Source: Chitinophagales bacterium (GTDB taxonomy: Bacteria > Bacteroidota > Bacteroidia > Chitinophagales > JADIYW01). Taken from it: 64,000 nt of DNA. The stretch spans positions 1,916 through 65,915 of the forward strand of contig JACJXS010000011.1 of NCBI GenBank assembly GCA_020636545.1, written 5' to 3'. This document shows positions 3,698 through 64,000 of the stretch, one piece after another; the first letter of the stretch is position 1; each line of letters starts with the position of its first letter. The notes below the pieces were generated by a model. That model was not told the DNA's origin and ran no database searches. It saw only the letters and a program-made list of their open reading frames with translations. Made by a program: the position numbers and the translations under genes.

Positions 3698-3704
3698 CCT
3701 CGCC

Positions 3705-3727
3705 TTTGTTGGTTTGCAACCAACAAA
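3705..3727. repeat. 10-bp-stem palindrome tttgttggtt-tgc-aaccaacaaa
   Basis: Perfect inverted repeat read directly. It is a near twin of the palindrome at 3815-3837. Confidence 0.8.
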
Positions 3728-3806
3728 CTTCTTATTTTTCATTGTGCAATTACTCATCTTCACTTGTTATTAAATATTAAATATTTTAATTTGATATTTA
3801 TTTTTT

Positions 3807-4348: not shown

Positions 4349-4410
4349 ATTAACAAAGTTACCTTTTCTTTTCAAAATTGTAAAACTAATTTATCAATAA
4401 GAACATAATT

Positions 4411-4813: not shown

Positions 4814-4815
4814 TT

Positions 4816-5684: not shown

Positions 5685-5746
5685 ACTAACAAAGTTACCT
5701 TTTCTTTTCAAAATTGTAAAACTAATTTATCAATAAGAACATAATT

Positions 5747-16995: not shown

Positions 16996-17047
16996 AAGAA
17001 AATCACAAAATACATTCTAATATTTTTTACGACTTTAGTAAATATGT

Positions 17048-17055
17048 TATATTTG
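17048..17055 (+). promoter_or_regulatory. Bacteroidota -7 promoter box TAnnTTTG (tatatttg) upstream of lpxA
   Basis: Exact match to the consensus, ending 5 nt before the lpxA ATG. Confidence 0.45.
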
Positions 17056-17060
17056 TAGGA

Positions 17061-18394: not shown

Positions 18395-18464
18395 TTCTAA
18401 TTAAAAAGCAAAAGTTTTTTCAAAATAGATTTTAGTATATTTAACTTAGTAAACTTGTGAAGTT

Positions 18465-20504: not shown

Positions 20505-20564
20505 AATGAAATTTATTTTTATATACATTCAAAGATTAATATCTTCGTCTAAAATTATTCTATA

Positions 20565-21323
20565 ATGGAATTTATCAAAATTAATAAGAAAGAAAATTAT
20601 GCTATCCTCCAAATGGATAGAGGCAAATCCAATCCCATAAACCAGCAATTTGTCGATGAATTTATTGAGGCTTTAAATCAATTAATGGCAGATAATGAAG
20701 TTTTGGGTGTCGTTGTTGCTGGAAAAGAAAATTTCTTTTCGGCAGGTTTAGATATTCCAGAATTATATAGTTATGATGAAGCACAATTCGATGTATTTTG
20801 GAAAAAATTCTTACAAATGATTTTGCAACTATCGAAATTTAATAAACCAATGGTTGCGGCTATTACTGGACATGCACCTGCTGGTGGTTGTATCATTGCC
20901 AATGGTTGTGATTATAGAGTTATGGCAGATGGAAACTATAAGATTGGATTGAATGAGATTCCAGTTGGAATTGTGGTTCCAAAAGGTGTGTATGCACAAT
21001 ACAGCATGTGGATTGGCACACGTAATGCTTATCAGTATTTAATGGAAGGTAAATTATACGCACCCAAACACGCTCAAGAAATTGGTTTAATAGATGAAGT
21101 AGTTCCTTTAGAAAATGTATTAGAAAGAGCAGAAACAAAATTGAAACAATATTTACAATATGAACAATCTGGTTGGAGATTGACAAAAACGCAACTTAGA
21201 CAATCTGTTGTAGATACAATGGAAAGCTTAACAGATAAGGAAATGGTAATGTTTCAAAAACAATGGTGGAGCGAATCTGTACGTGCTATTTTAGGTGCGT
21301 TTATTGACAAATTAAAGAAGTAA
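20565..21323 (+). CDS. enoyl-CoA hydratase/isomerase (crotonase) family protein
   Basis: Crotonase fold signatures FFSAGLDI and ITGHAPAGGC, 252 aa. Confidence 0.75.
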   Translation: MEFIKINKKENYAILQMDRGKSNPINQQFVDEFIEALNQLMADNEVLGVVVAGKENFFSAGLDIPELYSYDEAQFDVFWKKFLQMILQLSKFNKPMVAAITGHAPAGGCIIANGCDYRVMADGNYKIGLNEIPVGIVVPKGVYAQYSMWIGTRNAYQYLMEGKLYAPKHAQEIGLIDEVVPLENVLERAETKLKQYLQYEQSGWRLTKTQLRQSVVDTMESLTDKEMVMFQKQWWSESVRAILGAFIDKLKK

Positions 21324-22097
21324 TTATAATACAGCTGCAATTTTTTGTAATTTAGAAAGTAAATTTTCTACTTTATTAAGAGCTATCATATTGGAACCAT
21401 CACTTAATGCATTACTTGGATTAGGGTGCGTTTCTAAGAATAAGCCATCAGCTCCAGCAACAATGCCACATTTTGCTATAAGCTCAATAAATTCAGGTGT
21501 GCCGAGTGTTTTACCTTCAGTCGAATTGGGTTGTTGAATACTATGTGTTATGTCAATAATTGCTTTACAATGATTAGTTTTTAAAAGAGGAATATTCCTA
21601 AAATCAACCACTAAATCTTGATATCCAAATGAATTTCCACGTTCAGTCAGCCAAATATTATCATTACCTACACTGCGAACTTTATCTGCCGCAAATTGCA
21701 TTTGGATTGCATTTGCAAATTGTCCTTTTTTTATATTGATGATTTTTTCAGTTTTAGCAGCTGCTAATATTAAATCCGTTTGCCGACATAAGAAGGCTGG
21801 TATTTGTATTACATCAACAATATCTTTTACTTTTTCAATATCAGAAGATTCATGCACATCGGTCAATATTTGAACTTGATACTTTGATTTAATATCTGCT
21901 AAAATCTGTAATGCTTTAGTTTCTCCTATGGTTGAAAACGAATGAATAGAGGTTCTATTGGCTTTTTTAAAAGAAGCTTTAAAATAAAAAGGAATATTTA
22001 ATTTTTGAGTAATAGAAACCAATGTTTCTGCAACTTCAAAACCGATTTCTTGATTTTCAACCACACAAGGTCCAGCTATAAGAAAAAAATTACTCAA
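21324..22097 (-). CDS. kdsA: 3-deoxy-8-phosphooctulonate synthase
   Basis: FFLIAGPCVVEN N-terminus, KASFKKANRTS, DITHSIQ and LFLETHPNP motifs. Apparent TTG start. Confidence 0.85.
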   Translation of the reverse strand: MSNFFLIAGPCVVENQEIGFEVAETLVSITQKLNIPFYFKASFKKANRTSIHSFSTIGETKALQILADIKSKYQVQILTDVHESSDIEKVKDIVDVIQIPAFLCRQTDLILAAAKTEKIINIKKGQFANAIQMQFAADKVRSVGNDNIWLTERGNSFGYQDLVVDFRNIPLLKTNHCKAIIDITHSIQQPNSTEGKTLGTPEFIELIAKCGIVAGADGLFLETHPNPSNALSDGSNMIALNKVENLLSKLQKIAAVL

Positions 22098-22166
22098 CTT
22101 AAAAATTGTTATAAAAACAAACTTAGTATAATTTTAGAAAATAAGAAAGAAATGAAATAGAATTAC

Positions 22167-23057
22167 TTATAATAAACCTAAATCACTCAATTTTGATTTA
22201 ATTCTATTGCTTAAATCTTCATTTACTGGCATCAATGGTAATCTAACAGTTTCGCTACAAATTCCTAAATGATGTAATGCACATTTTACACCACCAGGAT
22301 TGCCTTGCTCAAATAACATATTCACTAAATCATCTAAAGCAAAAACTGTTTGTCTCGCATCAGCATAATTACCATCAAGTGCTTGATGTACCATTTCAGA
22401 AAATATTTTTGGAGTAGCATTAGCAATCACAGAGATAACGCCATCATAACCTAAAGAAATCTGAGGAATAATAATATCATCATTTCCAGAAATTAAATAA
22501 AATCCATCAGGTTTATGGTGTGCCAATTCTATAATTTGAGACCAATCAGAAGTTGCCTCTTTTATGGCAATAATATTTTTAAAATTTTCTGCCAATTTAA
22601 GCGTCGTAGAAGCCTTAATATTGCTCGATGTTCTTCCGGGAACATTGTATAAAATCACAGGCAATTCTGTACTTAATGCAATTGTTTTATAATGTTCATA
22701 CAGACCATCTTGAGTTGGTTTATTGTAATACGGAGAAACTGAAAGAATTGCATCAACACCTGATAAGTCAAACTTATTCAAATCAGCAACAATTTTTTGG
22801 GTATAGTTCCCTCCAAATCCAGCAATTACTGGCACTTTTCCAGCTACGTTATTGACTGTTGCTCTAATCATGTCTTGTCTCTCCTCATCGGACATAGTAG
22901 CCACTTCTCCTGTTGTACCTAATACAACAACATAATCGACATGATTTGCAATAACATGCTTACAAAGCTGTTCATATTGATTAAAATCTATCTCACCTTG
23001 TTCATTAAATGGAGTAACTAAAGCTACACCAACACCACGAAGATTAATACTACTCAT
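22167..23057 (-). CDS. dapA: 4-hydroxy-tetrahydrodipicolinate synthase
   Basis: GVGVALVTPF, GTTGE and IKEATSD (Schiff-base Lys) motifs, 296 aa. Confidence 0.9.
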   Translation of the reverse strand: MSSINLRGVGVALVTPFNEQGEIDFNQYEQLCKHVIANHVDYVVVLGTTGEVATMSDEERQDMIRATVNNVAGKVPVIAGFGGNYTQKIVADLNKFDLSGVDAILSVSPYYNKPTQDGLYEHYKTIALSTELPVILYNVPGRTSSNIKASTTLKLAENFKNIIAIKEATSDWSQIIELAHHKPDGFYLISGNDDIIIPQISLGYDGVISVIANATPKIFSEMVHQALDGNYADARQTVFALDDLVNMLFEQGNPGGVKCALHHLGICSETVRLPLMPVNEDLSNRIKSKLSDLGLL

Positions 23058-23298
23058 AAATTGTTTTAAAATGAAGCCCTAATTTCTAAAATTTATTTGA
23101 ATTATCTAAATTTAATTCATTAAATCCATAATAAATATTTTTTTTTAAATGTATTGATTCGTTTAATAAATGCTTGTTCAGGATATTTTATCAATTGATA
23201 TTGTTGAAGTTTGATAGTTTTTAAGTAATATAAAACGTAGTATTGAGAAAAAATATCAAAAAAAATAATACTGAATGTTGTTTTATAAGAAAAAGATA

Positions 23299-23306
23299 TT
23301 ATCTTT
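23299..23306 (+). promoter_or_regulatory. TAnnTTTG -7 box (tatctttg) upstream of tRNA-Asp
   Basis: Exact consensus match, 46 nt upstream of the tRNA 5' end. Confidence 0.4.
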
Positions 23307-23351
23307 GCATTCGCTTTTGGAGTTATTGTTTCAATAGTTTCAGAAACGGAA

Positions 23352-23425
23352 GGTTCGGTAGTTCAGTTGGTTAGAATACATGCCTGTCACGCATGGGGTC
23401 GCGGGTTCGAGTCCCGTCCGGACCG
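23352..23425 (+). tRNA. tRNA-Asp (anticodon GTC)
   Basis: Folded by hand. Acceptor ggttcgg/ccggacc with one G-U pair, D-arm agttcagttggttagaat, anticodon loop ctGTCac, T-arm ggttcgagtcc, discriminator G. CCA is not encoded. Confidence 0.9.
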
Positions 23426-23426
23426 C

Positions 23427-23461
23427 AAAAAAAGTCCTCAAATTTTTGAGGACTTTTTTTA
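23427..23461. terminator. bidirectional rho-independent terminator
   Basis: A-run, then gtcctcaaa-tt-tttgaggac, then a T-run immediately after the tRNA. Confidence 0.8.
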
Positions 23462-23491
23462 TTTTTCTATATTACTTCAATTACTCTATTT

Positions 23492-46778: not shown

Positions 46779-46786
46779 TACATTTG
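46779..46786 (+). promoter_or_regulatory. TAnnTTTG -7 box (tacatttg) upstream of acnB
   Basis: Exact consensus match, 67 nt before the preferred acnB ATG. Confidence 0.4.
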
Positions 46787-46852
46787 CCGTCGCAAATAAA
46801 TTTTATCAAAATACAGACGAATACGTCTATCATATTAAAAAAAACTTCTATT

Positions 46853-49624
46853 ATGAGCATTTACCAAGATTATCTTCAAGAGATTGAAGAAAGAAAAAAA
46901 CAAGGACTTCATGCAAAACCAATTGATGAAGCACCATTATTAACTGCAATTATCGAACAAATTAAAGATTTAGGTAATCCTCACAGAGCAGATTCTCTAA
47001 ACTTCTTTATCTACAATACCTTACCAGGCACAACACCTGCGGCAGCGGTTAAGGCACTTTTCTTAAAAGATATTATTTTAGGGAATACCGTTGTTGCTGA
47101 AATTTCCACAGATTTTGCTTTTGAATTATTGGCTCACATGAAAGGTGGAAAATCAATTGAAGTATTATTGGATATTGCATTAGGAAATGATACAACTATT
47201 GCTAAAAAAGCGGCAGATGTGCTTAAAACTCAAGTTTTCCTTTATGATGCAGATACTGCTCGTTTAAAAGAAGCTTACAATAATGGCAATGCAATTGCTA
47301 AAGAAATATTAGAAAGTTACGCAAATGCAGAGTTTTTCACTAAATTACCTGAAGTTCCAGAAACGATAAAAGTTGTAACATATATAGCCGCTGAAGGTGA
47401 TATTTCTACAGATTTATTATCACCAGGAAACCAAGCTCACTCTCGTTCTGATCGTGAATTGCACGGAAAATGTATGAACTCTCCAGAGGCACAAGCAGAA
47501 ATTAGAGCATTACAAGCAAAATTCCCTGATGCAAGTGTGATGATGATTGCAGAAAAAGGTACAATGGGTGTTGGTTCTTCTAGAATGTCTGGCGTAAACA
47601 ACGTGGCACTTTGGACAGGTAAACAATCAAGTCCTTATATTCCATTTGTAAATATTGCTCCTATTGTTGGTGGTACAAATGGAATTTCTCCGATTTTCTT
47701 AACTACAGTTGCTGTAACTGGAGGAATTGGACTAGACCTTAAAAATTGGGTAAAGAAAGTTGATGCAGATGGTAAAGTAGTAAAAGCTGAAAATGGAGAC
47801 CCAGTTTTAGAAGAAGTTTATTCTGTTGCAACAGGAACTGAATTAACGATAAATACAAAGACTAAGAAATTATACAATGGAGATAAAGAATTAATAGATA
47901 TTTCAAGTGCTTTAACTCCACAAAAAATGGAATTTATTAAAGCTGGTGGTTCTTATGCAGTTGTATTTGGTAAAAAATTACAAACATTTGCTGCTGAAAC
48001 TTTAGGCATTCAAGCACCTGTTGTTTTTGCACCTTCAAAAGAAATCACAATAGAAGGTCAAGGCTTAACAGCTGTAGAGAAAATATTCAACAAAAATGCA
48101 GTAGGTGTAACACCAGGAAAAATATTACATGCAGGTTCTGACGTACGTGTAAAAGTAAATATTGTTGGTTCTCAAGATACAACTGGTTTGATGACTGCCC
48201 AAGAATTAGAATCTATGGCTGCGACGGTTATCTCTCCAACTTTAGATGGTGCTTATCAATCTGGTTGCCATACAGCATCAGTTTGGGATAAAAAAGCTCA
48301 GGCAAATATCCCAAAACTAATGAGCTTTATGAACAACTTTGGTTTAATTACAGCGAGAGACCCAGAAGGCGTTTATCATTCTATGACTGATGTAATTCAC
48401 AAAGTATTAAATGATATCACTATTAATGATTGGGCAATTATTATTGGTGGAGACTCACATACTAGAATGTCTAAAGGTGTTGCTTTTGGTGCAGACTCTG
48501 GAACTGTTGCTTTAGCTTTAGCAACTGGAGAAGCTTCTATGCCAATTCCAGAATCTGTAAAAGTTACTTTCAAAGGTCAAATGAAAGAATATATGGATTT
48601 CCGTGATGTGGTTCATGCTACACAAGCACAAATGTTACAACAATTTGGCGGCGAGAATGTATTCCAAGGAAGAGTAATTGAAGTACATATTGGCACATTA
48701 CCTGCTGACCAAGCATTTACATTTACTGACTGGACTGCAGAAATGAAAGCAAAAGCATCTGTAAATATTTCAGAAGATGCAACATTAATTCAATCATTGG
48801 AGATTGCAAAAAGTAGAATCCAAATAATGATTGATAAAGGAATGGATAATGATAATCAAGTATTGAAAGGTTTGATTGACAAAGCAAATAATCGTATTGC
48901 TGAAATTCAATCTGGAGTAAATCCTGCTTTACGCCCTGATGCAAATGCAAAATATTTTGCAGAAGTAGTAGTCGATCTTGACCAAATTGTTGAGCCAATG
49001 ATTGCAGATCCTGATGTAAACAATAAAGATGTTTCTAAACGCTATACACACGATACCATCCGTCCATTATCTTATTATGAAGGCGAAAGAAAAGTTGATT
49101 TAGGATTCGTTGGTTCTTGTATGGTACACAAAGGCGACTTAAAAATCGTTGCACAAATGCTTAGAAATGTAGAAGCAGAAAAAGGTAAAGTAGAATTTAA
49201 TGCTCCTTTGGTTGTTGCCGCACCAACTTATAACATTATTGATGAATTAAAAGCTGAAGGTGATTGGGATATTTTAGAAAAATATTCTGGATTTGAATTT
49301 AATGATGCTGCTCCAAAAAATACGGCTCGTACAGAATATGAAAATATAATGTATTTAGAGCGTCCTGGTTGTAACTTATGTATGGGTAACCAAGAAAAAG
49401 CTGCAAAAGGCGATACTGTTATGGCAACTTCTACACGTTTGTTCCAAGGTAGAGTGGTAGAAGATTCAGCAACTAAAAAAGGAGAATCTTTATTATCTTC
49501 AACACCAGTGGTTGTACTTTCTGCAATCTTAGGTCGTACACCAAATATTGAAGAATATCAATCTGCTGTAAAAGGTATTAACTTGACAAAATTCAAACCT
49601 TCATCAATGCAATTAACTAAATAA
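46853..49624 (+). CDS. acnB: bifunctional aconitate hydratase 2 / 2-methylisocitrate dehydratase
   Basis: AcnB-type N-terminal HEAT-like domain (MSIYQDYLQEIEERKKQGL...), a swivel domain, and Fe-S ligand contexts (GGDSHT, GSCM, PGCNLCMGNQ). ATG at 46853 preferred over the non-ATG track start at 46784. Confidence 0.9.
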   Translation: MSIYQDYLQEIEERKKQGLHAKPIDEAPLLTAIIEQIKDLGNPHRADSLNFFIYNTLPGTTPAAAVKALFLKDIILGNTVVAEISTDFAFELLAHMKGGKSIEVLLDIALGNDTTIAKKAADVLKTQVFLYDADTARLKEAYNNGNAIAKEILESYANAEFFTKLPEVPETIKVVTYIAAEGDISTDLLSPGNQAHSRSDRELHGKCMNSPEAQAEIRALQAKFPDASVMMIAEKGTMGVGSSRMSGVNNVALWTGKQSSPYIPFVNIAPIVGGTNGISPIFLTTVAVTGGIGLDLKNWVKKVDADGKVVKAENGDPVLEEVYSVATGTELTINTKTKKLYNGDKELIDISSALTPQKMEFIKAGGSYAVVFGKKLQTFAAETLGIQAPVVFAPSKEITIEGQGLTAVEKIFNKNAVGVTPGKILHAGSDVRVKVNIVGSQDTTGLMTAQELESMAATVISPTLDGAYQSGCHTASVWDKKAQANIPKLMSFMNNFGLITARDPEGVYHSMTDVIHKVLNDITINDWAIIIGGDSHTRMSKGVAFGADSGTVALALATGEASMPIPESVKVTFKGQMKEYMDFRDVVHATQAQMLQQFGGENVFQGRVIEVHIGTLPADQAFTFTDWTAEMKAKASVNISEDATLIQSLEIAKSRIQIMIDKGMDNDNQVLKGLIDKANNRIAEIQSGVNPALRPDANAKYFAEVVVDLDQIVEPMIADPDVNNKDVSKRYTHDTIRPLSYYEGERKVDLGFVGSCMVHKGDLKIVAQMLRNVEAEKGKVEFNAPLVVAAPTYNIIDELKAEGDWDILEKYSGFEFNDAAPKNTARTEYENIMYLERPGCNLCMGNQEKAAKGDTVMATSTRLFQGRVVEDSATKKGESLLSSTPVVVLSAILGRTPNIEEYQSAVKGINLTKFKPSSMQLTK

Positions 49625-49696: not shown

Positions 49697-50227
49697 TTAT
49701 GCTCCGCCTGTTCCTTTAAAATAATCATCTTTATATTTAAACAAAACATTGAACGTCGTTAATGAACCATAAATTCTAGTAATATATTGTTGTAATTCAA
49801 CTTTCTCTGCATCAGTCAATTTACTAGCATTGATTTTTTGTTCCATCACTCGCAATCTATCTCTTGTCATCACAATTTTATGGAAGAAAGATTCTAGGTC
49901 AATTTCTTTATCTTGCAAAGATGTATCAGCCGATTGAATGATTAATTTTCCTCCTTGATATCTATCGGCAATTTTACAATCCTCAATGGGTTCAATTAAA
50001 GGCTTTATCATTTGATAGATGGTCTTCTCTACTTCGTCTAATGAAATACCTGAATTGTCTTTTTCTACTAACTTAATAACCAACATTCCATCAAAGGCTT
50101 TTGAAATTTCCTTTTCACCGTGTTCCGAAAAATAAATATTATATAAATATTCATCTTCATTGTCAATAATTACACCTTTTCCAAAAGTGGGATGTTCTAA
50201 CTTTGTTCCTATATTATAATTTGTCAT
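49697..50227 (-). CDS. hypothetical protein with N-terminal Tudor/DUF3553-like motif and helical C-terminal half
   Basis: ATG at 50227 (MTNYNIGTKLEHPTFGKGVIID...) preferred. The track's N-terminal extension runs through repeat-element sequence (50297-50345). Confidence 0.5.
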   Translation of the reverse strand: MTNYNIGTKLEHPTFGKGVIIDNEDEYLYNIYFSEHGEKEISKAFDGMLVIKLVEKDNSGISLDEVEKTIYQMIKPLIEPIEDCKIADRYQGGKLIIQSADTSLQDKEIDLESFFHKIVMTRDRLRVMEQKINASKLTDAEKVELQQYITRIYGSLTTFNVLFKYKDDYFKGTGGA

Positions 50228-50296
50228 ATTTATATTTTTGGACGAAAATAAGGAAAAACAAGCAAGTAATGAATTTTTAAGAGATATTGTATTATA

Positions 50297-50358
50297 GAGT
50301 AGAGATTTTTTGCAGATGTGAGTAGTGAGAGATGAGATTTCGAGCAATTAAGTATTTT
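50297..50358. repeat. modular heptamer-repeat element fragment, locus 5
   Basis: gagtagagatttttt...gtgagtagtgagagatgagattt matches the modules at 3575 and 9543. Confidence 0.7.
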
Positions 50359-50388
50359 AATAATAAAACAATTAAATATTTTTTTTTT

Positions 50389-50466
50389 CGCATTGGTTCG
50401 TGTCTTCACGAAACATAATAAATTATATATTAAAAAATGTGGCTTGTGAAAACACAAACCACTGCG
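50389..50466. repeat. ~78-bp double-hairpin palindromic element, copy 1
   Basis: cgcattggTTCGTGtcttCACGAAacataataaattatatattaaaaaatgtggcTTGTGaaaaCACAAaccactgcg. The outer 20-nt arms are inverted repeats of each other, and each arm also folds on itself. Confidence 0.85.
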
Positions 50467-50473
50467 TAATTTT

Positions 50474-50491
50474 TAGATTTTAGAAAATCTA
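50474..50491. repeat. 8-bp-stem palindrome tagatttt-ag-aaaatcta
   Basis: Read directly, between copies 1 and 2 of the double-hairpin element. Confidence 0.6.
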
Positions 50492-50550
50492 AATCCAAAC
50501 AAGAAGATATTGATAATTAATAAAACAGATTAAGAATGGATATTATTTCT

Positions 50551-50629
50551 CCGAATTATTTCGTGTCCTATCGAAACATAATAAATTATATATTAAAAAA
50601 TATGGTTTGTGAAGACACAAACCATTGCC
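50551..50629. repeat. ~78-bp double-hairpin palindromic element, copy 2 (left arm degenerate)
   Basis: ccgaattatttcgtgtcctatcgaaacataataaattatatattaaaaaatatggTTTGTGaagaCACAAAccattgcc, 73 bp from the 3' end of the ATPase gene. Confidence 0.8.
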
Positions 50630-50701
50630 TTAATTTTCTATTCAAAAACAAATACAAACCATTATCTTAATAAAAAAATATACTATGGTTATAGAATGGC
50701 T

Positions 50702-51907
50702 TTAATATAAAAAACCAAACAACCACAATGGTATTTTTTTACCTCTTGCATTTTCAATATCATCTAAAGCTAGAAGGTAATTGTTCTCATTTTTCACTTG
50801 ATCTATCGTCTTTGATTGACCACCAACTTCAATCACTAAATCATATTCTTCAATATAAAAATCACCAACCTTAGGCATTTTAATCGTAAGCCCAGCATTA
50901 GAAAGTTGAGACATCAGAAAAACTTCTCTAACTGTACCTATATTAGGCTGTGAGCTTAAAGCATAACACCAATTACTGTTCTCTAAAAATATTTTATCAG
51001 GTTTTTGAAGAGTAGAAACACCTCTACCTTGTGCAATCAACAAGCTTAAAATATTTGCTTTTTCTAAAAGCACTAACCAATGATAGATGGTCTCCCTACT
51101 CACATCTAATTTTCGTGCAAGTGCAGATATATTAGGCTTAAAAGGTGTAGATTCAGCAATTACACCTAATAATTTTTTTAGTTTAAAAGTAGTTTTCACA
51201 TCAAAACCTTCCATTGCAGCCAAATCAGTTTCTATAATCGTATTGATAATTTGGTTCAATTTCTTCAAGGTAGTATGTTCATTATTTTGAGCTGAGAATG
51301 GAAAATATCCCGTTTTAAGATAATTTCTAAATGTTGGTAGCGGATGTTGTATCTTTTCTATAATTGATTGAGTAATATTATACGCATCTGCTTGAATATC
51401 ACTAATTTTTATTGATGACATGCCTGAAATAAAGCCTGATATTTCAAGGTATTCCCTATATGACAAGCCCTGCATATTATAACTTATCAAACGCCTGCTC
51501 AAATCTGCTTCACCTTTATAAATGTCAAGAATAGAGGATGATGTAAAAACAATTTTCATTTCAGGAAATCCATCATAAATATTTTTAATTTCTCTTGACC
51601 AATTGGGATATTTATGTACTTCGTCTATAAATAAAAAGCGACCACCATTCTTATAAAATATATCAGCAGTTTGCACCAAATTATGTGTATAGAACCAATA
51701 ATGATCAGCCGTGATATAAAGAGAGGTTTCAGGTTGTTTTAAAATATACTTCATATACTGCAACATCAATGTCGTTTTTCCAACTCCACGCGAACCTTTT
51801 ATGGCAATCAAACGCTCACTCCAATCAATCTCTTGCATTAAATACCGAAAGTAATTTGATGTGGTATTTTGTAGTAAATTGTCGTTGAATTCATACAATT
51901 CTATCAT
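50702..51907 (-). CDS. AAA+ ATPase with C-terminal DUF4143-like region (COG1373-type)
   Basis: Walker A GSRGVGKTTL, Walker B LFIDEVH, and a C-terminal winged-helix-like part. ATG at 51907 preferred over the TTG at 51931. Confidence 0.75.
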   Translation of the reverse strand: MIELYEFNDNLLQNTTSNYFRYLMQEIDWSERLIAIKGSRGVGKTTLMLQYMKYILKQPETSLYITADHYWFYTHNLVQTADIFYKNGGRFLFIDEVHKYPNWSREIKNIYDGFPEMKIVFTSSSILDIYKGEADLSRRLISYNMQGLSYREYLEISGFISGMSSIKISDIQADAYNITQSIIEKIQHPLPTFRNYLKTGYFPFSAQNNEHTTLKKLNQIINTIIETDLAAMEGFDVKTTFKLKKLLGVIAESTPFKPNISALARKLDVSRETIYHWLVLLEKANILSLLIAQGRGVSTLQKPDKIFLENSNWCYALSSQPNIGTVREVFLMSQLSNAGLTIKMPKVGDFYIEEYDLVIEVGGQSKTIDQVKNENNYLLALDDIENARGKKIPLWLFGFLY

Positions 51908-52016
51908 AATATTGTCGTTTATATTCAACAAAATTAATAAATATTGTCGATATTAATCAACAATTTATCTATTTTCCATCTGTTTGTAACTTAATCTGAT
52001 GCTTTCTCACCTATTC

Positions 52017-52095
52017 CGCATTGGTTCGTGTCTTCACGAAACATAATAAGTTATATATTATAAAAATGTGGTTTGTGAAGACACAAACCACTGCC
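52017..52095. repeat. ~78-bp double-hairpin palindromic element, copy 3
   Basis: cgcattggTTCGTGtcttCACGAAacataataagttatatattataaaaatgtggTTTGTGaagaCACAAAccactgcc, upstream of the ATPase gene start. It is followed by ttagaatcaagact, a heptamer-family module. Confidence 0.85.
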
Positions 52096-52112
52096 TTAGA
52101 ATCAAGACTTTT

Positions 52113-52120
52113 CTTCTATT
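52113..52120 (+). promoter_or_regulatory. TAnnTTTG -7 box (tatttttg) upstream of the icmF 5' fragment
   Basis: Consensus match 76 nt before the fragment ATG. The equivalent box (tatatttg) lies at 55652-55659 before full-length icmF. Confidence 0.4.
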
Positions 52121-52195
52121 CATATTTTTGAGTAAGAATAGGAAATTTAGCCTATCTGAATTCATTTTTTTCAGGATATTCATTATTTTTACAAT

Positions 52196-52504
52196 ATGCA
52201 AAATCCGACATCCTATCAACCTAAAAACAAAATAAGAATTGTATCAGCGGCATCGTTATTTGATGGTCATGATGTTGCTATCAATATTATGCGTAGAATA
52301 ATGCAAGCTTCAGGTGCCGAAGTGATACATTTGGGACATAATCGAAGTGTCAAAGAGATTGTGGACTGTGCTATTCAAGAAGATGCCAACGCCATTGCTA
52401 TTACTTCTTACCAAGGTGGGCATGTACGTTTTTTAAAGTATATGTATGATTTGCTAAAAGAAAACAACAGTAATCAAATAAAAATTGCCTTGCAACGGTC
52501 TTAA
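52196..52504 (+). pseudogene. 5' fragment of an icmF allele (first 97 codons, partial B12-binding domain)
   Basis: 92 of 97 residues are identical to the N-terminus of 55729..59127. Homology stops at 52487, before the GGGG motif, and 5 unrelated codons and a stop follow. Confidence 0.85.
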
Positions 52505-52507
52505 TTT

Positions 52508-52533
52508 ATAAATAAGACAACTTATTTATTTTC
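52508..52533. terminator. weak AT-rich hairpin ataaataag-acaa-cttatttat plus T-run
   Basis: Lies between the convergent icmF fragment and XRE gene and overlaps the XRE stop codon. Confidence 0.35.
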
Positions 52534-52899
52534 TAACAATTTTATCTTTGCCTCTAATTGTGCAATAATAATATCTTTTGCAGCAAGCAATTCCTCATAT
52601 ACTTTCTTAAAATCTTCGGGAATATTATTATTTAGTATATGATTAACACCAATTACATTAGCAGTTTGAGTACAATTTTTAAAAACAAGTGTTTCGTCAA
52701 AAGCCTCTATGTCTTCTTTATTTACTTCTAATATTTCTGCTATTTTATCCAATTGCTCGTCCTGTATTTTTATAGAGCCGGTTTCCATTCTACTGTAAGT
52801 ATTTTGTTTAACACCGAGAGCATCAGCAACGTATGCCTGCGTAATATTTTTCAACTCACGTACCTTACGTATTTTATAACCTGTTCTGCTATTACTCAT
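52522..52899 (-). CDS. XRE-family helix-turn-helix regulator with C-terminal coiled coil
   Basis: HTH_3 pattern IRKVRELKNITQAYVADALGVKQNTYSRMETG and a heptad-like C-terminus (LLAAKDIIIAQLEAKIKLLENK). Confidence 0.8.
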   Translation of the reverse strand: MSNSRTGYKIRKVRELKNITQAYVADALGVKQNTYSRMETGSIKIQDEQLDKIAEILEVNKEDIEAFDETLVFKNCTQTANVIGVNHILNNNIPEDFKKVYEELLAAKDIIIAQLEAKIKLLENK

Positions 52900-53016
52900 A
52901 TACCTATGATAAATTATCCAAAATTCTCGGATAAACTATCCACAATAATACATTAAAAAAATGAAAATTTATAAGAATTTGTAAAAAAATTACACAAGAT
53001 ATAAAAATATATTACT

Positions 53017-54849
53017 ATGAAAAAATTACCAAAACTATCGCTGTTATTATTTTTAATAGGATTATTATTGACTTGGAGTTGCAAAAAAGACAATCAGAGA
53101 AAGCCCGATGACCCTGTAAAGGACATCAAAAAAGCCACTAATGTATTTGAAGTGGACAAACAGACCGACCAAAAGCTGATGGAACTTAAAGATGATGAAA
53201 TTGTTTTTAACGGCAATACAGCACAGTTAGACAGTGTTAAAGTGGGTAGCATTATAATATCTGGCACCACAGAAAATGCACCAGATGGTTACCTTAGAAA
53301 AGTAACGGGCATAGAAAAAAATGGTTCCGAGTATGTTTTTGCCACAGAGGAAGCCGCTTTAACAGAAGCATTTGAGAATTTAGATATAGATTATACTTAT
53401 ACTTTTAGTGATGCAGACTCCAACAAACGAACAGAGGCATTTGAAATAAAAATACCAACACCAAATGTTATTTTATATGATGCAGATGCTAACCATTCTA
53501 CTGTTTATGACCAGTTAAAGTTTAATGGAAATATTGTTATAAAGCCAAGCATTGATATTAAAATAAGAATTAGAAATTTTAAATTAGAATATGCCTTGGT
53601 GGGCGGAAAAATGGGTTATGAAACAGACCTATCTACTAATTTTGGTGGTAATGTAGCCAGTTTTACAAAATCTATGAAATTATACGAACAAATTATGGGT
53701 GCCTTTACAATACCTGGAACACCTATTGTTGTAACACCTACCATAAGTGTAAATTTAGGAGCAAAAGGAAATATTAGTGCAGAGTTGAGCTATTTACAAT
53801 CTTCTACAGGCAATGCAGGAGCTTATTTACAATACATAAATGGAGCATGGAGTACAGGTTCTGTAAAAGAAATGGAAACAGAAACAAGTTTTTCTGGATT
53901 TTCTGGCAATGCAAGTATGGAAACTTACTTGTCTCCTGCAATTAATTTAAAGTTTTATGGTTCAGATTGGGCTAAAGGCAGTGTTTTTATAAAGGCTTAT
54001 GCCACAATAGGAGCACAAGCAATACCCTATAAACCTTGCGAGCTAAAAGCAGGTGTAAGTGGAGGAGCAGAAGCTAATCTTGCATTTTTTGGCAGACAAT
54101 TTGCCAGTGCAAGCTACCCCGATGTTTTTGATTTTAATAAAACACTATATACTTGCAGTGCTATACCACCTGTTAATACCAATCCTTACTTAAACCCAAG
54201 CCTTACCTACGGTAGCGTTACAGACATAGAGGGCAATAAATATGCCACCATACAAATAGGCTACCAAATATGGATGGCAGAAAACTTGCGTACCACCAAA
54301 TACAACGATGGCACAGCAATACCAAATGTAACAGACAATACCGCTTGGAAAAACCTAACCACAGGAGCTTATACTGTATATAATTTCTCTCCTGAAAATG
54401 AGGCTATTTACGGTAAGTTATACAACTGGTATGCAGTAAACACAGGCAAATTATGCCCGCAAGGCTGGCATATACCAACCGAAGCCGAATGGACACAATT
54501 AAATACGTATTTAGGCTCTAATGCTGGTAAAAAAATGAAATCTACAGGCTATAAAATAGACAGTACAGGCTTATGGGAATATGGAGGCAATTACGAAGGT
54601 ACTAACGAAAGCGGTTTTACAGGTCTTCCAGGTGGCTACCGTTCTAATAGTGGTTCTTTTTACTTGAACGGGAGTTATGGATTTTTTTGGAGTTCTACTG
54701 AAACAGGCAATAAGAATAACAGCAAATGGTTGAGATTATCTTCTGGACAGAATTCTGCTCCAATTGGTACTGCAGATGGTTGGAGTAATGGAGGAAGTTC
54801 TTCCTACAATCAAAGAGATGGTTATAGTTGTCGTTGTGTAAAAGATTAG
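53017..54849 (+). CDS. lipoprotein with unknown ~390-aa N-terminal region and C-terminal FISUMP (Fibrobacter succinogenes major paralogous) domain
   Basis: Lipobox LLLTWSC. The C-terminal domain has VTDIEGNKYATIQIGYQIWMAENL, YGKLYNWYA, CPQGWHIPTEAEW, GFTGLPGGYR and a final SCRCVKD. Confidence 0.75.
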   Translation: MKKLPKLSLLLFLIGLLLTWSCKKDNQRKPDDPVKDIKKATNVFEVDKQTDQKLMELKDDEIVFNGNTAQLDSVKVGSIIISGTTENAPDGYLRKVTGIEKNGSEYVFATEEAALTEAFENLDIDYTYTFSDADSNKRTEAFEIKIPTPNVILYDADANHSTVYDQLKFNGNIVIKPSIDIKIRIRNFKLEYALVGGKMGYETDLSTNFGGNVASFTKSMKLYEQIMGAFTIPGTPIVVTPTISVNLGAKGNISAELSYLQSSTGNAGAYLQYINGAWSTGSVKEMETETSFSGFSGNASMETYLSPAINLKFYGSDWAKGSVFIKAYATIGAQAIPYKPCELKAGVSGGAEANLAFFGRQFASASYPDVFDFNKTLYTCSAIPPVNTNPYLNPSLTYGSVTDIEGNKYATIQIGYQIWMAENLRTTKYNDGTAIPNVTDNTAWKNLTTGAYTVYNFSPENEAIYGKLYNWYAVNTGKLCPQGWHIPTEAEWTQLNTYLGSNAGKKMKSTGYKIDSTGLWEYGGNYEGTNESGFTGLPGGYRSNSGSFYLNGSYGFFWSSTETGNKNNSKWLRLSSGQNSAPIGTADGWSNGGSSSYNQRDGYSCRCVKD

Positions 54850-54979
54850 AGTAAGAAAAATGATATGGGAAAACAATGTGTATATTATAGGAAAAAAAGA
54901 GCACCATGAAGAGTGTATTGTTATGCATCTAAAATCTAAAACATAAACCCAATATTAATAATTTAAAAAATAAATAAAA

Positions 54980-55534
54980 ATGACACGAATAATTTTAATA
55001 CTAACACTAATTTTTGGACTTAATTCATTTCTAACAGCACAATCAGTTCCCGAACCGGAATTTGCTATGCGACCTTATTACTTAGGTACAGATAATACTT
55101 TAAAAAATTTAGAAAGAGTTGATGCCCAGTTTGATTTTAAGGCAAAAGTATATGCAGGAACTGAGATTTATTATACTGCTTTTGGAAAAGCATCTGATAT
55201 TAGATTCTCTAAAGATGCACTGCCTCAATTTATCATCAAAGTTGAGCAAGGTGTAGATCCTTATGAAATGATTTCATTAGGCAAAGCAGAAATAAAAAAA
55301 GACCGCAGAAGATTTTTACAGAGTCGTATGGCTAAAACAGGAAAAACTAAGGATGTAAGTGGAGCATATTTAGAGCTTGAATTTAAAAAAATTAGAGACG
55401 GACTATTTGAAATAATTCTTCCTAATAATATTGAAGTTGGAGAGTATGCATTTATGCCAATTTCTAAAGATAGTGGAAATATATTTGCATCTTATGGTTC
55501 AAAAGCAAAAATAACCTGCTTTGGAATTGATTAA
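54980..55534 (+). CDS. secreted hypothetical protein
   Basis: 184 aa with a signal peptide (LNSFLTAQS). No recognised motif. Confidence 0.5.
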   Translation: MTRIILILTLIFGLNSFLTAQSVPEPEFAMRPYYLGTDNTLKNLERVDAQFDFKAKVYAGTEIYYTAFGKASDIRFSKDALPQFIIKVEQGVDPYEMISLGKAEIKKDRRRFLQSRMAKTGKTKDVSGAYLELEFKKIRDGLFEIILPNNIEVGEYAFMPISKDSGNIFASYGSKAKITCFGID

Positions 55535-55578
55535 AAAGAATTAGAGAGTATTTTTAATAGCCTACAACAATAACACCT

Positions 55579-55620
55579 AAACTGCTTTAGCCAAAATATT
55601 TTGGCTAAAGCAGTTTTTCT
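55579..55620 (+). terminator. strong rho-independent terminator
   Basis: aaactgctttagccaaaat/attttggctaaagcagttt forms a stem of about 19 bp, followed by a T-run. Confidence 0.85.
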
Positions 55621-55651
55621 TTTGCTCTGTTATCCTACAAAATAAACTGTT

Positions 55652-55659
55652 TATATTTG
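55652..55659 (+). promoter_or_regulatory. TAnnTTTG -7 box (tatatttg) upstream of icmF
   Basis: Consensus match 70 nt before the icmF ATG. Confidence 0.4.
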
Positions 55660-55728
55660 TATAATGGAAAATAAGGATTTTAAACTATCTAAATTCATTT
55701 TTTAAAGTATATTACTTAATTTTACAAT

Positions 55729-58700
55729 ATGCAAAATCCGACACCATATCAGCCTAAAAACAAAATTAGAATAGTAACCGCAGCTTCTCTTTTTGACGGT
55801 CATGATGTTGCTATCAATATTATGCGTAGAATTATGCAGTCTTCGGGTGCTGAAGTGATACATCTTGGACACAATCGAAGTGTAAAAGAGATTGTGGACT
55901 GTGCCATTCAAGAAGATGCAAATGCTATTGCTATTACATCTTATCAAGGTGGTCATGTTCGCTTCTTGAAATATATGTATGATTTGTTGCAAGAGCAAAA
56001 TAGCAATCAAATTAAAATTGTTGGCGGTGGTGGAGGAACTATTTTACCATCAGAAATTGAAGAATTAGAACAATATGGCATAGATAAAATTTATTCGCCA
56101 GATGATGGTCGTGAAATGGGTTTGCAAGGTATGATAAATGAAGTATTAGAAATTGCAGATTTCGCGACAGGAAAAGATATTAGTTTGGATACTGAATTAT
56201 TAAAACAAAAAAATACCAAACAAATTGCACAACTAATTTCTTGTGCTGAAAATTTCCCTAAGGAATTTGAAAAAACAGCAGCTCAAATCTCATCTCTCAC
56301 TGCTCACAATCAAACTCCAATTCTCGGAATTACTGGAACTGGCGGTGCTGGAAAGTCATCTCTAACCGATGAGATAGTACGCAGATTTTTATTAGATTTT
56401 CCAGATAAAACCGTAGCGATTATTTCCATTGACCCATCACGAAGAAAAACTGGAGGAGCCTTATTGGGCGATAGAATCCGAATGAATAGTATCAATAATG
56501 AACGTGTTTTTATGCGTTCGATGGCAACTCGTCAAACCAATGCTTCTATTTCTAAAGATGTTCAAGATGCTATCCAGATTTTAAAAGCTGCTGCTTATGA
56601 TTTAATCATTGTTGAAACTTCTGGAATTGGGCAGAGTGGTACTGAAATTATTGATATTGCTGATGTTTTCTTATATGTGATGACACCTGAATTTGGAGCT
56701 GCTTCACAATTGGAAAAAATTGATATGTTGGATTATGCAGATATTGTTGCTATCAATAAATTTGATAAGCGAGGAGCTCAAGATGCTTTAAGAGATGTCA
56801 AAAAACAGTACCAACGCAATAGAAACCTATGGGATAAAAATCCTGATGAAATGCCTGTTTTTGGTAGTATTGCAGCCCAATTTAATGATCCAGGAACTAA
56901 TGAACTATATCTAAATCTAATTCAAACAATCATTACGAAGACAAAAGTAGATTGGCGTAGTCAATTAAATTTAAAAACTGGAAATTCTGAAAAAATCTAT
57001 ATTATTCCACCAAACAGAACACGCTATTTATCTGAAATTGTAAAGACAAATAAAGATTATGATGTTTGGGTCAATGAACAAGCTGAAATTGCAAACGCAC
57101 TTTATGCTTTGGATAGAGTTCAGTCTATTGTTCAGAGTTCACAGTCCAATAAGAACCAAGAATCAAGAACCAAGAACCAAGAACTATTACCGATTGACCA
57201 ATTAAGGAATGAACAACAACAAAAACTGCATCATGATTGTAAACAAATTTTAGACAATTGGACAGAGAAAGTTCAATCTTATAAAAATAAAGAGTTTGTA
57301 TTTAAAGTTCGTGATAAAGAAATAAAAATTAAAACACATACCACTTCATTATCGCATCAAGAAATACCAAAAGTGGCACTTCCAAAATACACAGCTTGGG
57401 GTGATATTTTGAAATGGAATTTGCAAGAAAATGTACCAGGTAGTTTTCCATATACTGCTGGTGTCTTTCCTTTCAAAAGAGAAAATGAAGATCCTACAAG
57501 AATGTTTGCTGGAGAAGGTGGTCCTGAAAGAACCAATAAACGTTTTCATTATGTGTCTTTAGGTTTGCCTGCAAAAAGGTTATCAACTGCGTTTGATAGT
57601 GTTACTTTATATGGCAACAATCCAGATTTACGACCTGATATTTATGGAAAAATCGGTAATTCAGGCGTTTCAATTTGTACGCTAGATGATGCTAAAAAAC
57701 TGTATTCTGGATTTGATTTATGCAGTCCGACAACATCAGTTTCTATGACGATTAATGGACCAGCACCAACAATTTGTGCATTTTTTATGAATGCTGCAAT
57801 CGACCAACAATGTGAAAAGTATATCAAGGAAAATAATTTAACTACAATAGTAGAACAAAAGATTGATGCAATTTATAAAGCAAAAAATGTCACTCGTCCT
57901 TGTTATTATGGAAAATTACCTGAAGGTAATGACGGTTTAGGTTTGATGCTTTTAGGCGTTACAGGCGACCAAGTTTTAGAAAAAGATATTTATGAAAAAA
58001 TAAAAAAATATACACTTTCTCAAGTTCGAGGAACTGTCCAAGCTGATATTTTAAAAGAAGATCAAGCACAAAACACTTGTATCTTTTCTACAGAGTTTTC
58101 ATTAAAATTGATGGGTGATGTACAAAGCTATTTTGTAGAAAATAAAGTACGTAATTTTTATTCTGTTTCAATTTCTGGTTATCATATTGCCGAAGCTGGA
58201 GCGAACCCAATATCTCAGCTGGCATTTACATTAGCCAATGGCTTTACATTTGTAGAATATTATTTATCCAGAGGAATGCATATCGATGATTTTGCACCAA
58301 ACTTATCGTTCTTTTTCTCCAATGGTATAGACCCAGAGTATGCTGTAATAGGTCGTGTTGCTCGAAAAATATGGGCAAAAGCAATGAAATATTTGTACAA
58401 AGGCGATGAAAGAAGTCAGAAATTAAAATATCATGTACAAACATCTGGAAGAAGCTTACACGCTCAAGAAATAAGTTTTAATGATATTCGTACAACATTG
58501 CAAGCATTGTATGCTATTTATGATAACTGCAATTCCTTACATACCAATGCTTATGATGAAGCAATTACCACACCAACCGAAGAAAGTGTGCGTAGAGCAA
58601 TGGCAATTCAATTAATTATCAATAAAGAATTAGGGTTGGCAAAAAATGAAAATCCTTTACAAGGTTCTTTTATTATTGAAGAATTGACTGATTTGGTAGA

Positions 58701-59127
58701 AGAAGCAGTTTATACAGAATTTGAGAGAATGACGGAGCGTGGAGGTGTTTTGGGAGCAATGGAAACTATGTATCAACGTGGAAAAATTCAGGAAGAAAGT
58801 ATGTATTATGAAAACTTGAAACATACAGGAAATTATCCAATTATTGGTGTAAATACTTTTTTATCCTCAAAAGGTTCACCAACTGTAATTCCAGATGAAG
58901 TGATAAGAAGTACCGATGAAGAAAAAAATAATCAGATTGATAATTTGAATGCACTGCATCAACGAAATGAAAATGATTCGATAAAGCTTCTAAAAACATT
59001 ACAACAAACAGCATTAGAAAATAAAAATGTATTTGAAGTCTTAATGGAAACAGTAAAATATTGCAGTTTAGGACAAATTACTCAAGCACTTTTTGAAGTT
59101 GGTGGTCAGTATAGAAGAAATATGTAG
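55729..59127 (+). CDS. icmF: fused isobutyryl-CoA mutase (B12-binding domain, MeaB-like G-protein, mutase substrate domain)
   Basis: N-terminal B12 domain ([16 protein letters not shown]), a central P-loop GTPase ([18 protein letters not shown]), and a C-terminal acyl-CoA mutase TIM-barrel region. 1132 aa with the IcmF domain order. Confidence 0.85.
57151..57185 (+). repeat. five tandem AAGAAYY heptamers inside the icmF linker
   Basis: aagaacc aagaatc aagaacc aagaacc aagaact, translated in frame as [12 protein letters not shown]. The same CAAGAAY motif occurs in the intergenic modular elements. Confidence 0.85.
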
Positions 59128-62970: not shown

Positions 62971-64000
62971 ATGAATTTGAAGCCTTTTTTATTTTTTATA
63001 TTTGTTATATATTTTGTTTTTTTGAATGGTGCTGAAAATGGCTACAAATATTGGAAGAAAGCCAATCAACTATTTGAACAAAAGAAATATCAAGAAGCTT
63101 TAATTTATTATGATAAGATAGATAAAAGTATTGACATCTTAGATGTAAAAATTAATTCAGCTCGTTGCTTTTATTTCTTAGAAAAATTTTCTGAAGCAGA
63201 AAATGCCTATCAAAAAATTATAGAAATACCTAATATCAATTTAGATGTTTATAAAGAATATGCCAATATTTTAATCAAAAATGGTAAAGCTAATGAAGCA
63301 AAAATATGGGATAAAAAATATATTGAGGAAAACATAAAACAACAAAAATTTATTACCGAAATTCCTGCTAAACCAACTAAAGAAATTAGTAACAAGACTA
63401 AAGAAGTAAGTAATAAGAATGATAAGAAGCAAAAGGATACTACAGCTAAGACAATTAAAACGCCTAAAGTCAAACCTATTAAGGATACTGTAAAGATTGA
63501 AAAGCCTAAAGAAATTAGTAATAAGACAAAAGTAGTAAGTGATAAGAAAGATAAGGAGCAAAAGGATACTACAGCTAAGACAATTAAAACGCCTAAAGTC
63601 AAACCTATTAAGGATACTATAAAGATTGAAAAGCCTAAAGAAATTAGTAATAAGACAAAAGTAGTAAGTAATAAGAAAGATAAGGAGCAAAAGGATACTA
63701 CAGCTAAGACAATTAAAACGCCTAAAGTCAAACCTATTAAGGATACTGTAAAGATTGAAAAGCCTAAAGAAATTAGTAACAAGACTAAAGAAGTAAGTAA
63801 TAAGAATGATAAGAAGCAAAAGGATACTACAGCTAAGACAATTAAAACGCCTAAAGTCAAACCTATTAAGGATACTATAAAGATTGAAAAGCCTAAAGAA
63901 ATTAGTAACAAGACTAAAGAAGTAAGTGACAAGAAAGATAAGGAGCAAAAGGATACTACAGCTAAGACAATTAAAACGCCTAAAGTCAAACCTATTAAGG
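62971..64000 (+). CDS. secreted/membrane-anchored protein with TPR-like N-terminal region and Lys-rich 43-aa tandem repeats, 3'-truncated by window edge
   Basis: Hand translation from the ATG at 62971 stays open to the window end: MNLKPFLFFIFVIYFVFLNGAENGYKYWKKANQLFEQKKYQEALIYYDK...KEISNKTKEVSNKNDKKQKDTTAKTIKTPKVKPIKDTVKIEKP repeated. It is absent from the ORF track because it has no stop inside the window. Confidence 0.75.
   Translation, partial: MNLKPFLFFIFVIYFVFLNGAENGYKYWKKANQLFEQKKYQEALIYYDKIDKSIDILDVKINSARCFYFLEKFSEAENAYQKIIEIPNINLDVYKEYANILIKNGKANEAKIWDKKYIEENIKQQKFITEIPAKPTKEISNKTKEVSNKNDKKQKDTTAKTIKTPKVKPIKDTVKIEKPKEISNKTKVVSDKKDKEQKDTTAKTIKTPKVKPIKDTIKIEKPKEISNKTKVVSNKKDKEQKDTTAKTIKTPKVKPIKDTVKIEKPKEISNKTKEVSNKNDKKQKDTTAKTIKTPKVKPIKDTIKIEKPKEISNKTKEVSDKKDKEQKDTTAKTIKTPKVKPIK
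63379..64000 (+). repeat. 129-bp tandem repeat, at least 4.8 copies, in frame
   Basis: Unit starts at 63379, 63508, 63637, 63766 and 63895. The units differ only at a few positions, which occur in mosaic combinations. Confidence 0.95.

Follow-up and report, generated by a model that had tools for sequence, protein, structure and literature searches.

The start of icmF, the gene of a fused isobutyryl-CoA mutase/GTPase, occurs twice in a 64,000-nucleotide (nt) stretch of the genome of a Chitinophagales bacterium (GCA_020636545.1, contig JACJXS010000011.1, positions 1,916-65,915 of the forward strand), referred to here as the window. The locus is read, with a probability of about 55%, as a scar left at a cassette hot spot by recombination that was homologous on one side and illegitimate on the other. 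The left icmF copy is foreign and the right one is native; the former most likely originated as a stranded remnant, comprising the promoter region and 97 codons, of the icmF of a closely related, distinct lineage. The strain-variable unit is an islet of about 5.4 kb (approximately 50258-55669), which fills a former 78-nt divergent promoter region between icmF and the gene of a 176-amino-acid (aa) hypothetical protein, p216. A truncated gene is found stranded beside newly placed DNA, with one junction that shows no homology.

The two copies, both on the forward strand, form a single ungapped direct repeat of 351 nt (52137-52487 and 55670-56020) with an identity of approximately 84-85% in local alignment. 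Each spans the icmF upstream region and codons 1-97. Beyond 52487 and 56020 the copies are unlike, with matches at chance level, and nothing aligns past codon 97; on the 5' side of 52137 and 55670, a weak extension of about 18 nt remains, which contains TAnnTTTG boxes. Between the copies, 37 of the 97 codons differ, 32 of them synonymously only, and five residues are changed (S6P, S17T, A38S, K88Q, and N90Q). The differences are distributed over codon positions 1, 2, and 3 as 8, 0, and 35. By the Nei-Gojobori method, 35 synonymous differences fall on 59.7 synonymous sites and 8 non-synonymous differences on 231.3 non-synonymous sites, giving a synonymous distance (dS) of 1.14, a non-synonymous distance (dN) of 0.035, and a dN/dS ratio of 0.031 (Fisher p 1.7e-21 against equal rates). 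In the 59 nt preceding the ATG, 47 positions are identical. The first-pass annotation, made from the sequence of the window alone, had placed the repeat at about 52110-52487 and 55650-56020 and had counted the codon differences by hand; the repeat was confirmed with the narrower limits given above, all of the counts were reproduced, and the synonymous enrichment that it had proposed for formal calculation holds. Its two evolutionary statements also stand: decay of an in-situ duplicate under neutrality does not fit the codon-position pattern, the dN/dS ratio, or the conspecific genomes without the left copy, and divergence of the copies inside functional icmF genes of different lineages, united later, agrees with a dN/dS of 0.03 and with the absence of a non-synonymous excess on the fragment branch.

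The resident copy was identified by comparison with ten conspecific contigs (L166-L175; Chitinophagales metagenome-assembled genomes (MAGs) from NCBI and one ENA contig), which were located via the exact 176-aa p216 protein. These contigs differ from the window flanks by 0-2 mismatches per 500 nt on both sides, lack window positions from about 50300 to 55651, and carry instead a 1017-nt cassette with a 71-aa gene and a RelE/YafQ toxin gene. In a gapped alignment, window positions 55670-56409 were 100% identical to the MAG L166, whereas the left copy reached only 84% identity to the conspecific icmF start. Since the right copy is identical to that of the segment-free conspecifics and the left copy is not, the intact gene and its promoter are resident, and the truncated left copy is imported (xenologous). 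The leading model of the first-pass annotation, in which an element brings a replacement icmF 5' end, fails on this point, because the 5' end and promoter that complete the gene are the conspecific allele; the question it had raised, whether either 5' copy is foreign, is answered by the left one.

In a more distant relative (L083, about 80% nucleotide identity), the single useful locus yielded by a metagenome scan, p216 and icmF are divergent neighbours whose start codons are separated by 78 nt. The empty site expected earlier is therefore present in L083, but its gap corresponds to 50257-55666 and not to 52488-55669, and the conspecific strains hold another cassette at this place. Relatives accordingly do not share the two icmF copies. 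The accessory segment had been given as 3.2 kb and its insertion placed inside the icmF 5' end; both had to be revised, since the variable unit also includes the gene of an AAA_14 ATPase with its repeats, and the actual site is the promoter region between p216 and icmF. In the sister lineage L181 (GCA_041392965.1), whose IcmF is 91% identical at the amino acid level and 85.9% at the nucleotide level, the site is occupied by a 164-aa gene and elements of a palindromic repeat, D2. An identical AAA_14 protein was detected in six further samples and in at least three contexts: next to the 164-aa gene (L183 and L184), next to unrelated sequence (L186 and L187), and in the window arrangement with the icmF fragment (L185). 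At least five contents of the site were thereby seen, namely, empty, the toxin-antitoxin pair, the 164-aa gene, the AAA_14 ATPase, and the composite islet. The presence of different modules, often delimited by D2 repeats, in otherwise near-identical genomes indicates that the site is a recombination hot spot.

The D2 repeat is approximately 80 nt long and consists of two 8-bp stem-loops, with the loops TCTT and AAGA, around an AT-rich spacer of about 28 nt. The window contains three copies, all around the AAA_14 gene: D2a (50386-50465), D2b (50543-50642), the hairpin of which reads as the terminator of the AAA_14 gene, and D2c (52008-52107), which lies about 30 nt 5' of the foreign icmF promoter copy and is approximately 94% identical to D2a over 81 nt. 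Across the 64-kb window and 23 kb of L181, the repeat was confined to this islet, where it marks cassette borders in the two lineages. The L181 copies are located at 8832-8875, 8880-8962, and 9843-9881, and two of them are cut within the central AT-rich spacer. Three breakpoints lie in or at D2: position 50429, where homology to L181 ends (centre of D2a), position 50597, where L183 and L184 switch (centre of D2b), and position 52006 (edge of D2c). For the islet leader and the D2 elements, identity between lineages is 94-98%, against a divergence of 13-14% in the adjacent genes; judging from this similarity, they could serve as anchors for exchange. D2 itself could be a recombination site, a small miniature inverted-repeat transposable element, or a terminator/insulator module. 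As a separate observation, the conspecific toxin-antitoxin cassette is flanked by another, perfect palindrome (CGCCATTGTTGGTTGCAACCAACAATGGCG and a variant; L166 positions 9725-9696 and 8970-8940).

Every filled islet is bordered on both sides by remnants of the former intergenic region, each of which contains an 11-nt motif, X (GAAAATAAGGA), with a TAnnTTTG box just upstream. At the left islet edge, the p216-proximal remnant of the ancestral 78-nt region (50228-50257), at the end of which homology to L083 ceases, carries the box at 50233-50240 and X at 50244-50254; the copy of X at the right islet edge is located at 55667-55677. Retention of X on both sides probably reflects the promoter needs of the two divergent genes. 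Leftward of the left edge, no mismatches to L166 were found and p216 is of the conspecific type; rightward, the leader (50258-50385, or 50258-50429 when extended to the centre of D2a) is approximately 98% identical to the sister-lineage islet of L181, although the p216 gene adjoining it is about 13% diverged between the two.

The source of the left allele was sought by comparing three alleles. The left and right alleles are 85.2% identical (dS 1.14), the left allele and that of sister lineage K 88.0% (dS 0.79), and the right allele and that of lineage K 86.9% (dS 0.84), with dN of 0.026-0.035 in all three comparisons. The left allele is thus about equally distant from the resident and the sister-lineage alleles, and the three make up a tight group. 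When the distances were split over branches, the dN/dS ratio on the left-copy branch was approximately 0.024, not above that of the branches of the two intact genes; the truncation is therefore recent relative to the divergence, and the history of the fragment passed almost wholly inside a working gene. Residues S17 and A38 are unique to the left copy among the three alleles and are conservative; A38 is also found in the icmF of L001, L003, and L004. A scan of the GTDB collection of one genome per species with both N-termini, a collection that does not include this species, gave a closest match of 87% over 97 aa without shared neighbours. The context of the left copy (D2, about 30 nt, promoter) mirrors that of the native icmF in L181, a resemblance suggesting that everything from the leader to codon 97, with AAA_14 and D2c in between, derives as a single segment from the locus of a third lineage. 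The GC content is about 30-36% throughout the region without a compositional anomaly, which fits a related donor.

Other candidates for the origin or for further cases were set aside. A paralogous second mutase was considered and rejected. Numerous short 'B12-binding' proteins encoded on long contigs resembled further stranded fragments; the two that were checked (P0002 and P0004) turned out to be frameshift-split icmF genes. The contigs L176 and L177 were not retained as a second case, their allele being simply that of the sister lineage L181. In L176 (1-1206) and L177, the sister-lineage icmF breaks off close to codon 133, where DNA of higher GC content follows that bears an oppositely oriented gene; the truncation, seen in two assemblies of one study, is due either to a chimeric contig or to another case of a stranded icmF start.

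Two of the islet junctions recur outside the window. The junction between the AAA_14 gene and the fragment was reproduced in the independent assemblies L081, L082, and L185, and that between the fragment and the helix-turn-helix (HTH) gene at codon 97 was identical in L081, L082, L163, L164, and L180. The contigs bearing them match the window at 96.5-99.9% identity. At this second, probably illegitimate junction (52487/52488), icmF codon 97/98 is joined to DNA lying 34 nt beyond the stop of the HTH gene. Two contigs are mosaic within the fragment. L180 has another upstream gene (MntH-like) and another icmF allele up to 52405, followed by 1046 nt that are 100% identical to the window; L163 shows the same other allele up to 52312 and the window type from there, so that two different crossover points lie inside the fragment. 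If these mosaics hold at the level of reads, the stranded fragment is an active substrate of homologous recombination with the icmF genes of other lineages.

Under the explanation favoured here, the donor would be a third lineage with a D2-type islet, consisting of the AAA_14 cassette and then D2c, directly upstream of its own icmF. At one end, a crossover would have occurred in shared islet sequence, either the leader or D2; at the other, the incoming DNA would have been joined illegitimately at icmF codon 97, next to a module of an XRE-family regulator, a FISUMP-domain lipoprotein, and the protein p184. The resident icmF with its promoter, the present right copy, would not have been replaced, and the fragment would afterwards have acted as a homology patch for further exchanges. 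Such a process would correspond to homology-facilitated illegitimate recombination, also known as 'sequential displacement'. In a variant, the join would have been made in another lineage, and the composite islet would then have moved here by flanking homologous recombination. Of the two models offered in the first-pass annotation, the better fit is given by the second, in which foreign DNA recombined through an anchor in icmF.

Several observations weigh against this explanation. For the join of p184 to the right copy (55608-55670), the window assembly is the sole support, and the L180 and L163 mosaics are short-read metagenome contigs that need confirmation at read level. No full-length IcmF with S6, S17, A38, K88, and N90 was found (the first search listed short proteins only), so the donor lineage is unsampled and the arrangement ascribed to it is conjectural. 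The parental sequences in which microhomology of a few bases at the illegitimate join would be visible, namely the continuation of donor icmF after codon 97 and the original recipient DNA that preceded 52488, were likewise not found, nor was a strain seen with the XRE-FISUMP-p184 module and without the fragment. In addition, the 11-nt motif X coincides with three independent breakpoints, and the adjacent genes contain no donor-type tracts of single-nucleotide polymorphisms (SNPs); this precision exceeds what plain homologous recombination would predict and could indicate a site-specific process.

An unrecognised site-specific cassette system would account for the last point. Here D2 and/or X would be the sites, the recombinase would be encoded elsewhere, and an aberrant excision, as in specialised transduction, would have captured the fragment, which then returned to the chromosome at X along with the cargo. 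The recurrence of breakpoints at X and in or at the edge of D2, the two L181 copies of D2 cut in their central spacer, the confinement of D2 to the islet, and the lack of donor SNP tracts all agree with such a system, as does the order of X, promoter remnant, icmF codons 1-97, cargo, and X, which is expected of an aberrantly excised circle re-inserted at X. Nevertheless, it is considered unlikely: no recombinase was found in the window flanks, no circular form was observed, and no Rfam family scored above threshold. With 82-94% similarity over 80-100 nt, the D2 copies could recombine by the ordinary homologous route, and the centres of palindromes are prone to breakage in general. X, for its part, belongs to the promoters of the two flanking genes, and its retention on both sides may reflect selection for expression. 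The proposal that the p216-icmF islet is a cassette array of an undescribed system of Chitinophagales-like Bacteroidota, with D2 and perhaps X as crossover sites and the fragment as captured host DNA, is doubtful to the same degree. In a milder version, the fragment may be kept as a homology arm, by which cargo spreads between species through ordinary recombination and leaves icmF unharmed. Campbell-type integration was also weighed, in which a circle with the cargo and one foreign icmF 5' region would have entered by a single homologous crossover and duplicated that region. Homologous direct repeats do flank the cargo, the junction 52487/52488 would then be the circularisation joint, and the L180 and L163 mosaics indicate that crossovers within the repeat are possible. 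A crossover within the 351 nt would, however, make both copies hybrid, yet from X onward the right copy is entirely of the resident type and the left entirely of the foreign type; the exchange would be confined to the leftmost 11-30 nt or so, a stretch over which RecA does not recombine efficiently when the sequences are 15% diverged. Because neither copy is hybrid, this route is disfavoured and appears rather improbable.

The remaining alternatives are weaker. If a site-specific integrative element of the e14/icd type had entered the icmF 5' end and supplied a new promoter and 5' end, the left copy would be the displaced native end, and gene-end duplicates differing mainly at synonymous sites would flank an accessory segment, as observed. 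This is nonetheless very unlikely, since the completing 5' end is identical to that of the segment-free conspecifics and so not element-borne, and the truncated copy is the foreign one. Moreover, no integrase and no phage, plasmid, or viral match was found, and the polymorphic unit reaches 2.2 kb further to the left than the repeat, where conspecifics show another cassette and no empty attachment site. The least credible readings are an assembly chimera of two co-assembled organisms and a tandem duplication that diverged in place. The window does appear to be a metagenome-type assembly, related lineages co-occur in the same samples, and the right-hand junction lacks independent support; against a chimera stand the left and middle junctions recovered in other assemblies at 96.5-99.9% identity and the absence of any shared sequence at 52487/52488 that could mislead an assembler. 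A duplication in situ is excluded by a dS of 1.14 combined with a dN/dS of 0.03 and by the conspecific genomes without the left copy.

The intact gene (55729-59127, forward strand) encodes an IcmF of 1132 aa and scored 1785 bits against the NCBIfam equivalog NF045497 (cut-off 1500), with the B12-binding domain, the MeaB-type GTPase, and the mutase domain (Pfam B12-binding, MeaB, and MM_CoA_mutase) in one chain. Only the downstream copy extends to a full-length gene, as had been noted in the first-pass annotation; it is followed by PhyH and then biotin carboxylase. The left copy contains an open reading frame (ORF) of 102 aa (52196-52504, forward strand), made up of 97 icmF codons and the junction-encoded tail ALQRS. 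It spans positions 2-81 of the 121 in the Pfam B12-binding model and is cut immediately before the VGGGGG strand; it is a fragment and not an IcmF member. The tail is also found in P0285 and P0286, and the ORF is intact in every version seen. The TAnnTTTG box reported earlier for the displaced fragment was located at 52123-52130 (TATTTTTG), and that of the native icmF promoter is situated at 55652-55659 (TATATTTG); both are on the forward strand just outside the repeat, equally far from the ATG. Taken by itself, the motif shows no enrichment across the window (142 found against 122.5 expected), and the boxes therefore count solely through their conserved position. Because a box stands at the native distance and the ORF is intact in all versions, the fragment could be transcribed, running head-on into the XRE gene 17 nt away. 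On domain content, a function is unlikely, the last third of the B12-binding fold being missing, and we infer that the fragment is probably not part of a working enzyme. It will, all the same, be annotated as a 'cobalamin B12-binding domain protein', though it is most likely a scar.

The other genes of the islet were annotated as follows. The AAA_14/DUF4143 ATPase (401 aa; 50702-51907, reverse strand; Pfam AAA_14, 8.7e-28) is a candidate-defence cassette according to PADLOC (PDC-S01, 1.5e-29). The XRE-family HTH regulator (125 aa; 52522-52899, reverse strand; Pfam HTH_3, 5.3e-14) is convergent with the fragment ORF. It is followed by a 610-aa lipoprotein (53017-54849, forward strand) with a predicted signal ending in LTWSC and a C-terminal FISUMP (Fib_succ_major) domain (Pfam, 2.7e-43; NCBIfam TIGR02145), and by p184 (184 aa; 54980-55534, forward strand), which has an N-terminal signal peptide and belongs to no known family. 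In a search for the cargo elsewhere, no p184 homologue outside this islet exceeded 62% identity. The FISUMP lipoprotein gene is hypervariable among strains: that of L164 has 51 mismatches and a product 12 aa shorter (88% aa identity), and that of L165 is 49% identical over the C-terminal 131 aa, yet the neighbouring p184 is 100% identical. A bidirectional terminator-like hairpin with a 17-bp stem (55579-55616) would insulate the native icmF promoter from the islet; Logan contigs stop at this point. The left flank gene p216 (49697-50227, reverse strand) has its true start at MTNYNIG, as determined from the ORF and the alignment with the L083 homologue; it was divergent from icmF in the ancestral arrangement and gave no Pfam, NCBIfam, or PADLOC match. 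No integrase, transposase, or resolvase domain was detected in the ORFs at 49697-55534 or in the called flank genes of the conspecific contigs, in agreement with the first-pass annotation, which had seen no recombinase. Searches against phages, plasmids, and viral contigs were all without match, and an Rfam scan of the islet, D2 included, gave chance-level matches only, none above threshold.

The flanks of the islet are themselves recombination mosaics, as judged from sequence comparison. Within acnB (46784-49624, forward strand), a tract of about 1.3 kb (47000-48250) shows 81 mismatches from all ten conspecific contigs and is near identical to L181; it looks like an imported recombination tract in a housekeeping gene. 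On the other side, L167 and L174 have five clustered SNPs in the first native icmF codons (equivalent to window 55744-55761), three of which agree with the left-copy allele and replace P6 by S; the patch resembles a short conversion tract. In L181, a block of ComEC, ECH, DAHP-synthase, and DHDPS genes located 3' of icmF (13382-19407) corresponds to window 18387-23482 at 90.5% identity. As this block lies 35 kb away in the window, icmF stands at a synteny break between the lineages.

Other repeats were observed in the window. Tandem 129-nt units (4.8 copies, 96% identity) occupy 63377-64000 and run off the window end within long ORFs; the array probably encodes a 43-aa protein repeat, and its copy number seems to vary in conspecific contigs. 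A near-identical duplication with a spacing of 1336 nt (3844-4143 and 5180-5479, 99%) is located in the region 3582-6175, where a family of 94-113-nt repeats is also present in up to six copies (also at about 9904-9966); one relative of this family lies within the L181 islet (9008-9069).

For an uncultured group of Bacteroidota, the locus documents gene flow between sister lineages at the level of sequence and with a date attached, since one gene start kept as two alleles reveals resident and imported DNA. It indicates that a 78-nt divergent promoter region can act as a hot spot and that a stranded gene fragment can keep recombining with other lineages. Short-read assemblies break at this repeat. 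Of everything at this locus, only the D2 family found along the cassette borders might open a way to something new.

The locus can be compared with the chromosomal hot spots at which horizontally acquired genes accumulate, among them islets of defence or toxin-antitoxin genes between conserved core genes. As in such hot spots, close relatives carry different small modules between one and the same two core genes, here a RelE/YafQ pair, the AAA_14 candidate-defence ATPase, a 164-aa gene, or none. It differs from generic hot spots in that the site lies within a 78-nt divergent promoter region, a partial copy of which is kept on both sides, and in that a locus-specific palindromic repeat stands between the modules. 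Integron arrays offer a resemblance only: short imperfect palindromes occur at cassette boundaries, the modules are shuffled among strains, and some half-sites are truncated. Unlike in integrons, however, no intI-type integrase is found nearby, the cassettes occur in either orientation, each with promoters and terminator-like hairpins of its own, and D2 has no match to a curated family of RNA or DNA structures.

According to PMC13626634, which cites Hill et al. 1989, integration of e14 or phage 21 into the icd gene of E. coli leaves the pseudogene icdC. That case is similar in that duplicate gene ends, differing mostly at synonymous sites, bracket accessory DNA. The e14 element carries an integrase and a gene end of its own that completes the working gene, whereas at the icmF locus the resident end is kept and no integrase is present. 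The sites also differ, being the upstream promoter region here and not a coding end.

The closest resemblance is to sequential displacement, which has been proposed for orphan effector/immunity fragments in type VI secretion system (T6SS) clusters of Vibrio cholerae and for orphan 3' ends of Rhs and contact-dependent inhibition (CDI) genes (PMC3240628, PMC5361080). The one-sided homologous plus illegitimate process behind it has been documented in transformable bacteria and in conjugation (PMC3240628, PMC5361080). In contrast to the T6SS and Rhs arrays, the stranded piece at the icmF locus is the 5' end and promoter of a housekeeping metabolic gene and not the 3' end of a toxin gene, it comes from another lineage, and the anchor seems to lie in islet-internal repeats (D2 or the leader) and not in a conserved gene. 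What is shared is a new module beside a conserved gene, with a truncated piece of an earlier gene stranded next to it, one junction without homology and the other probably in shared sequence, no dedicated recombinase, and contents that vary among close strains. The scar of gene exchange described here is thus real but fairly ordinary, and the process is of a known kind.

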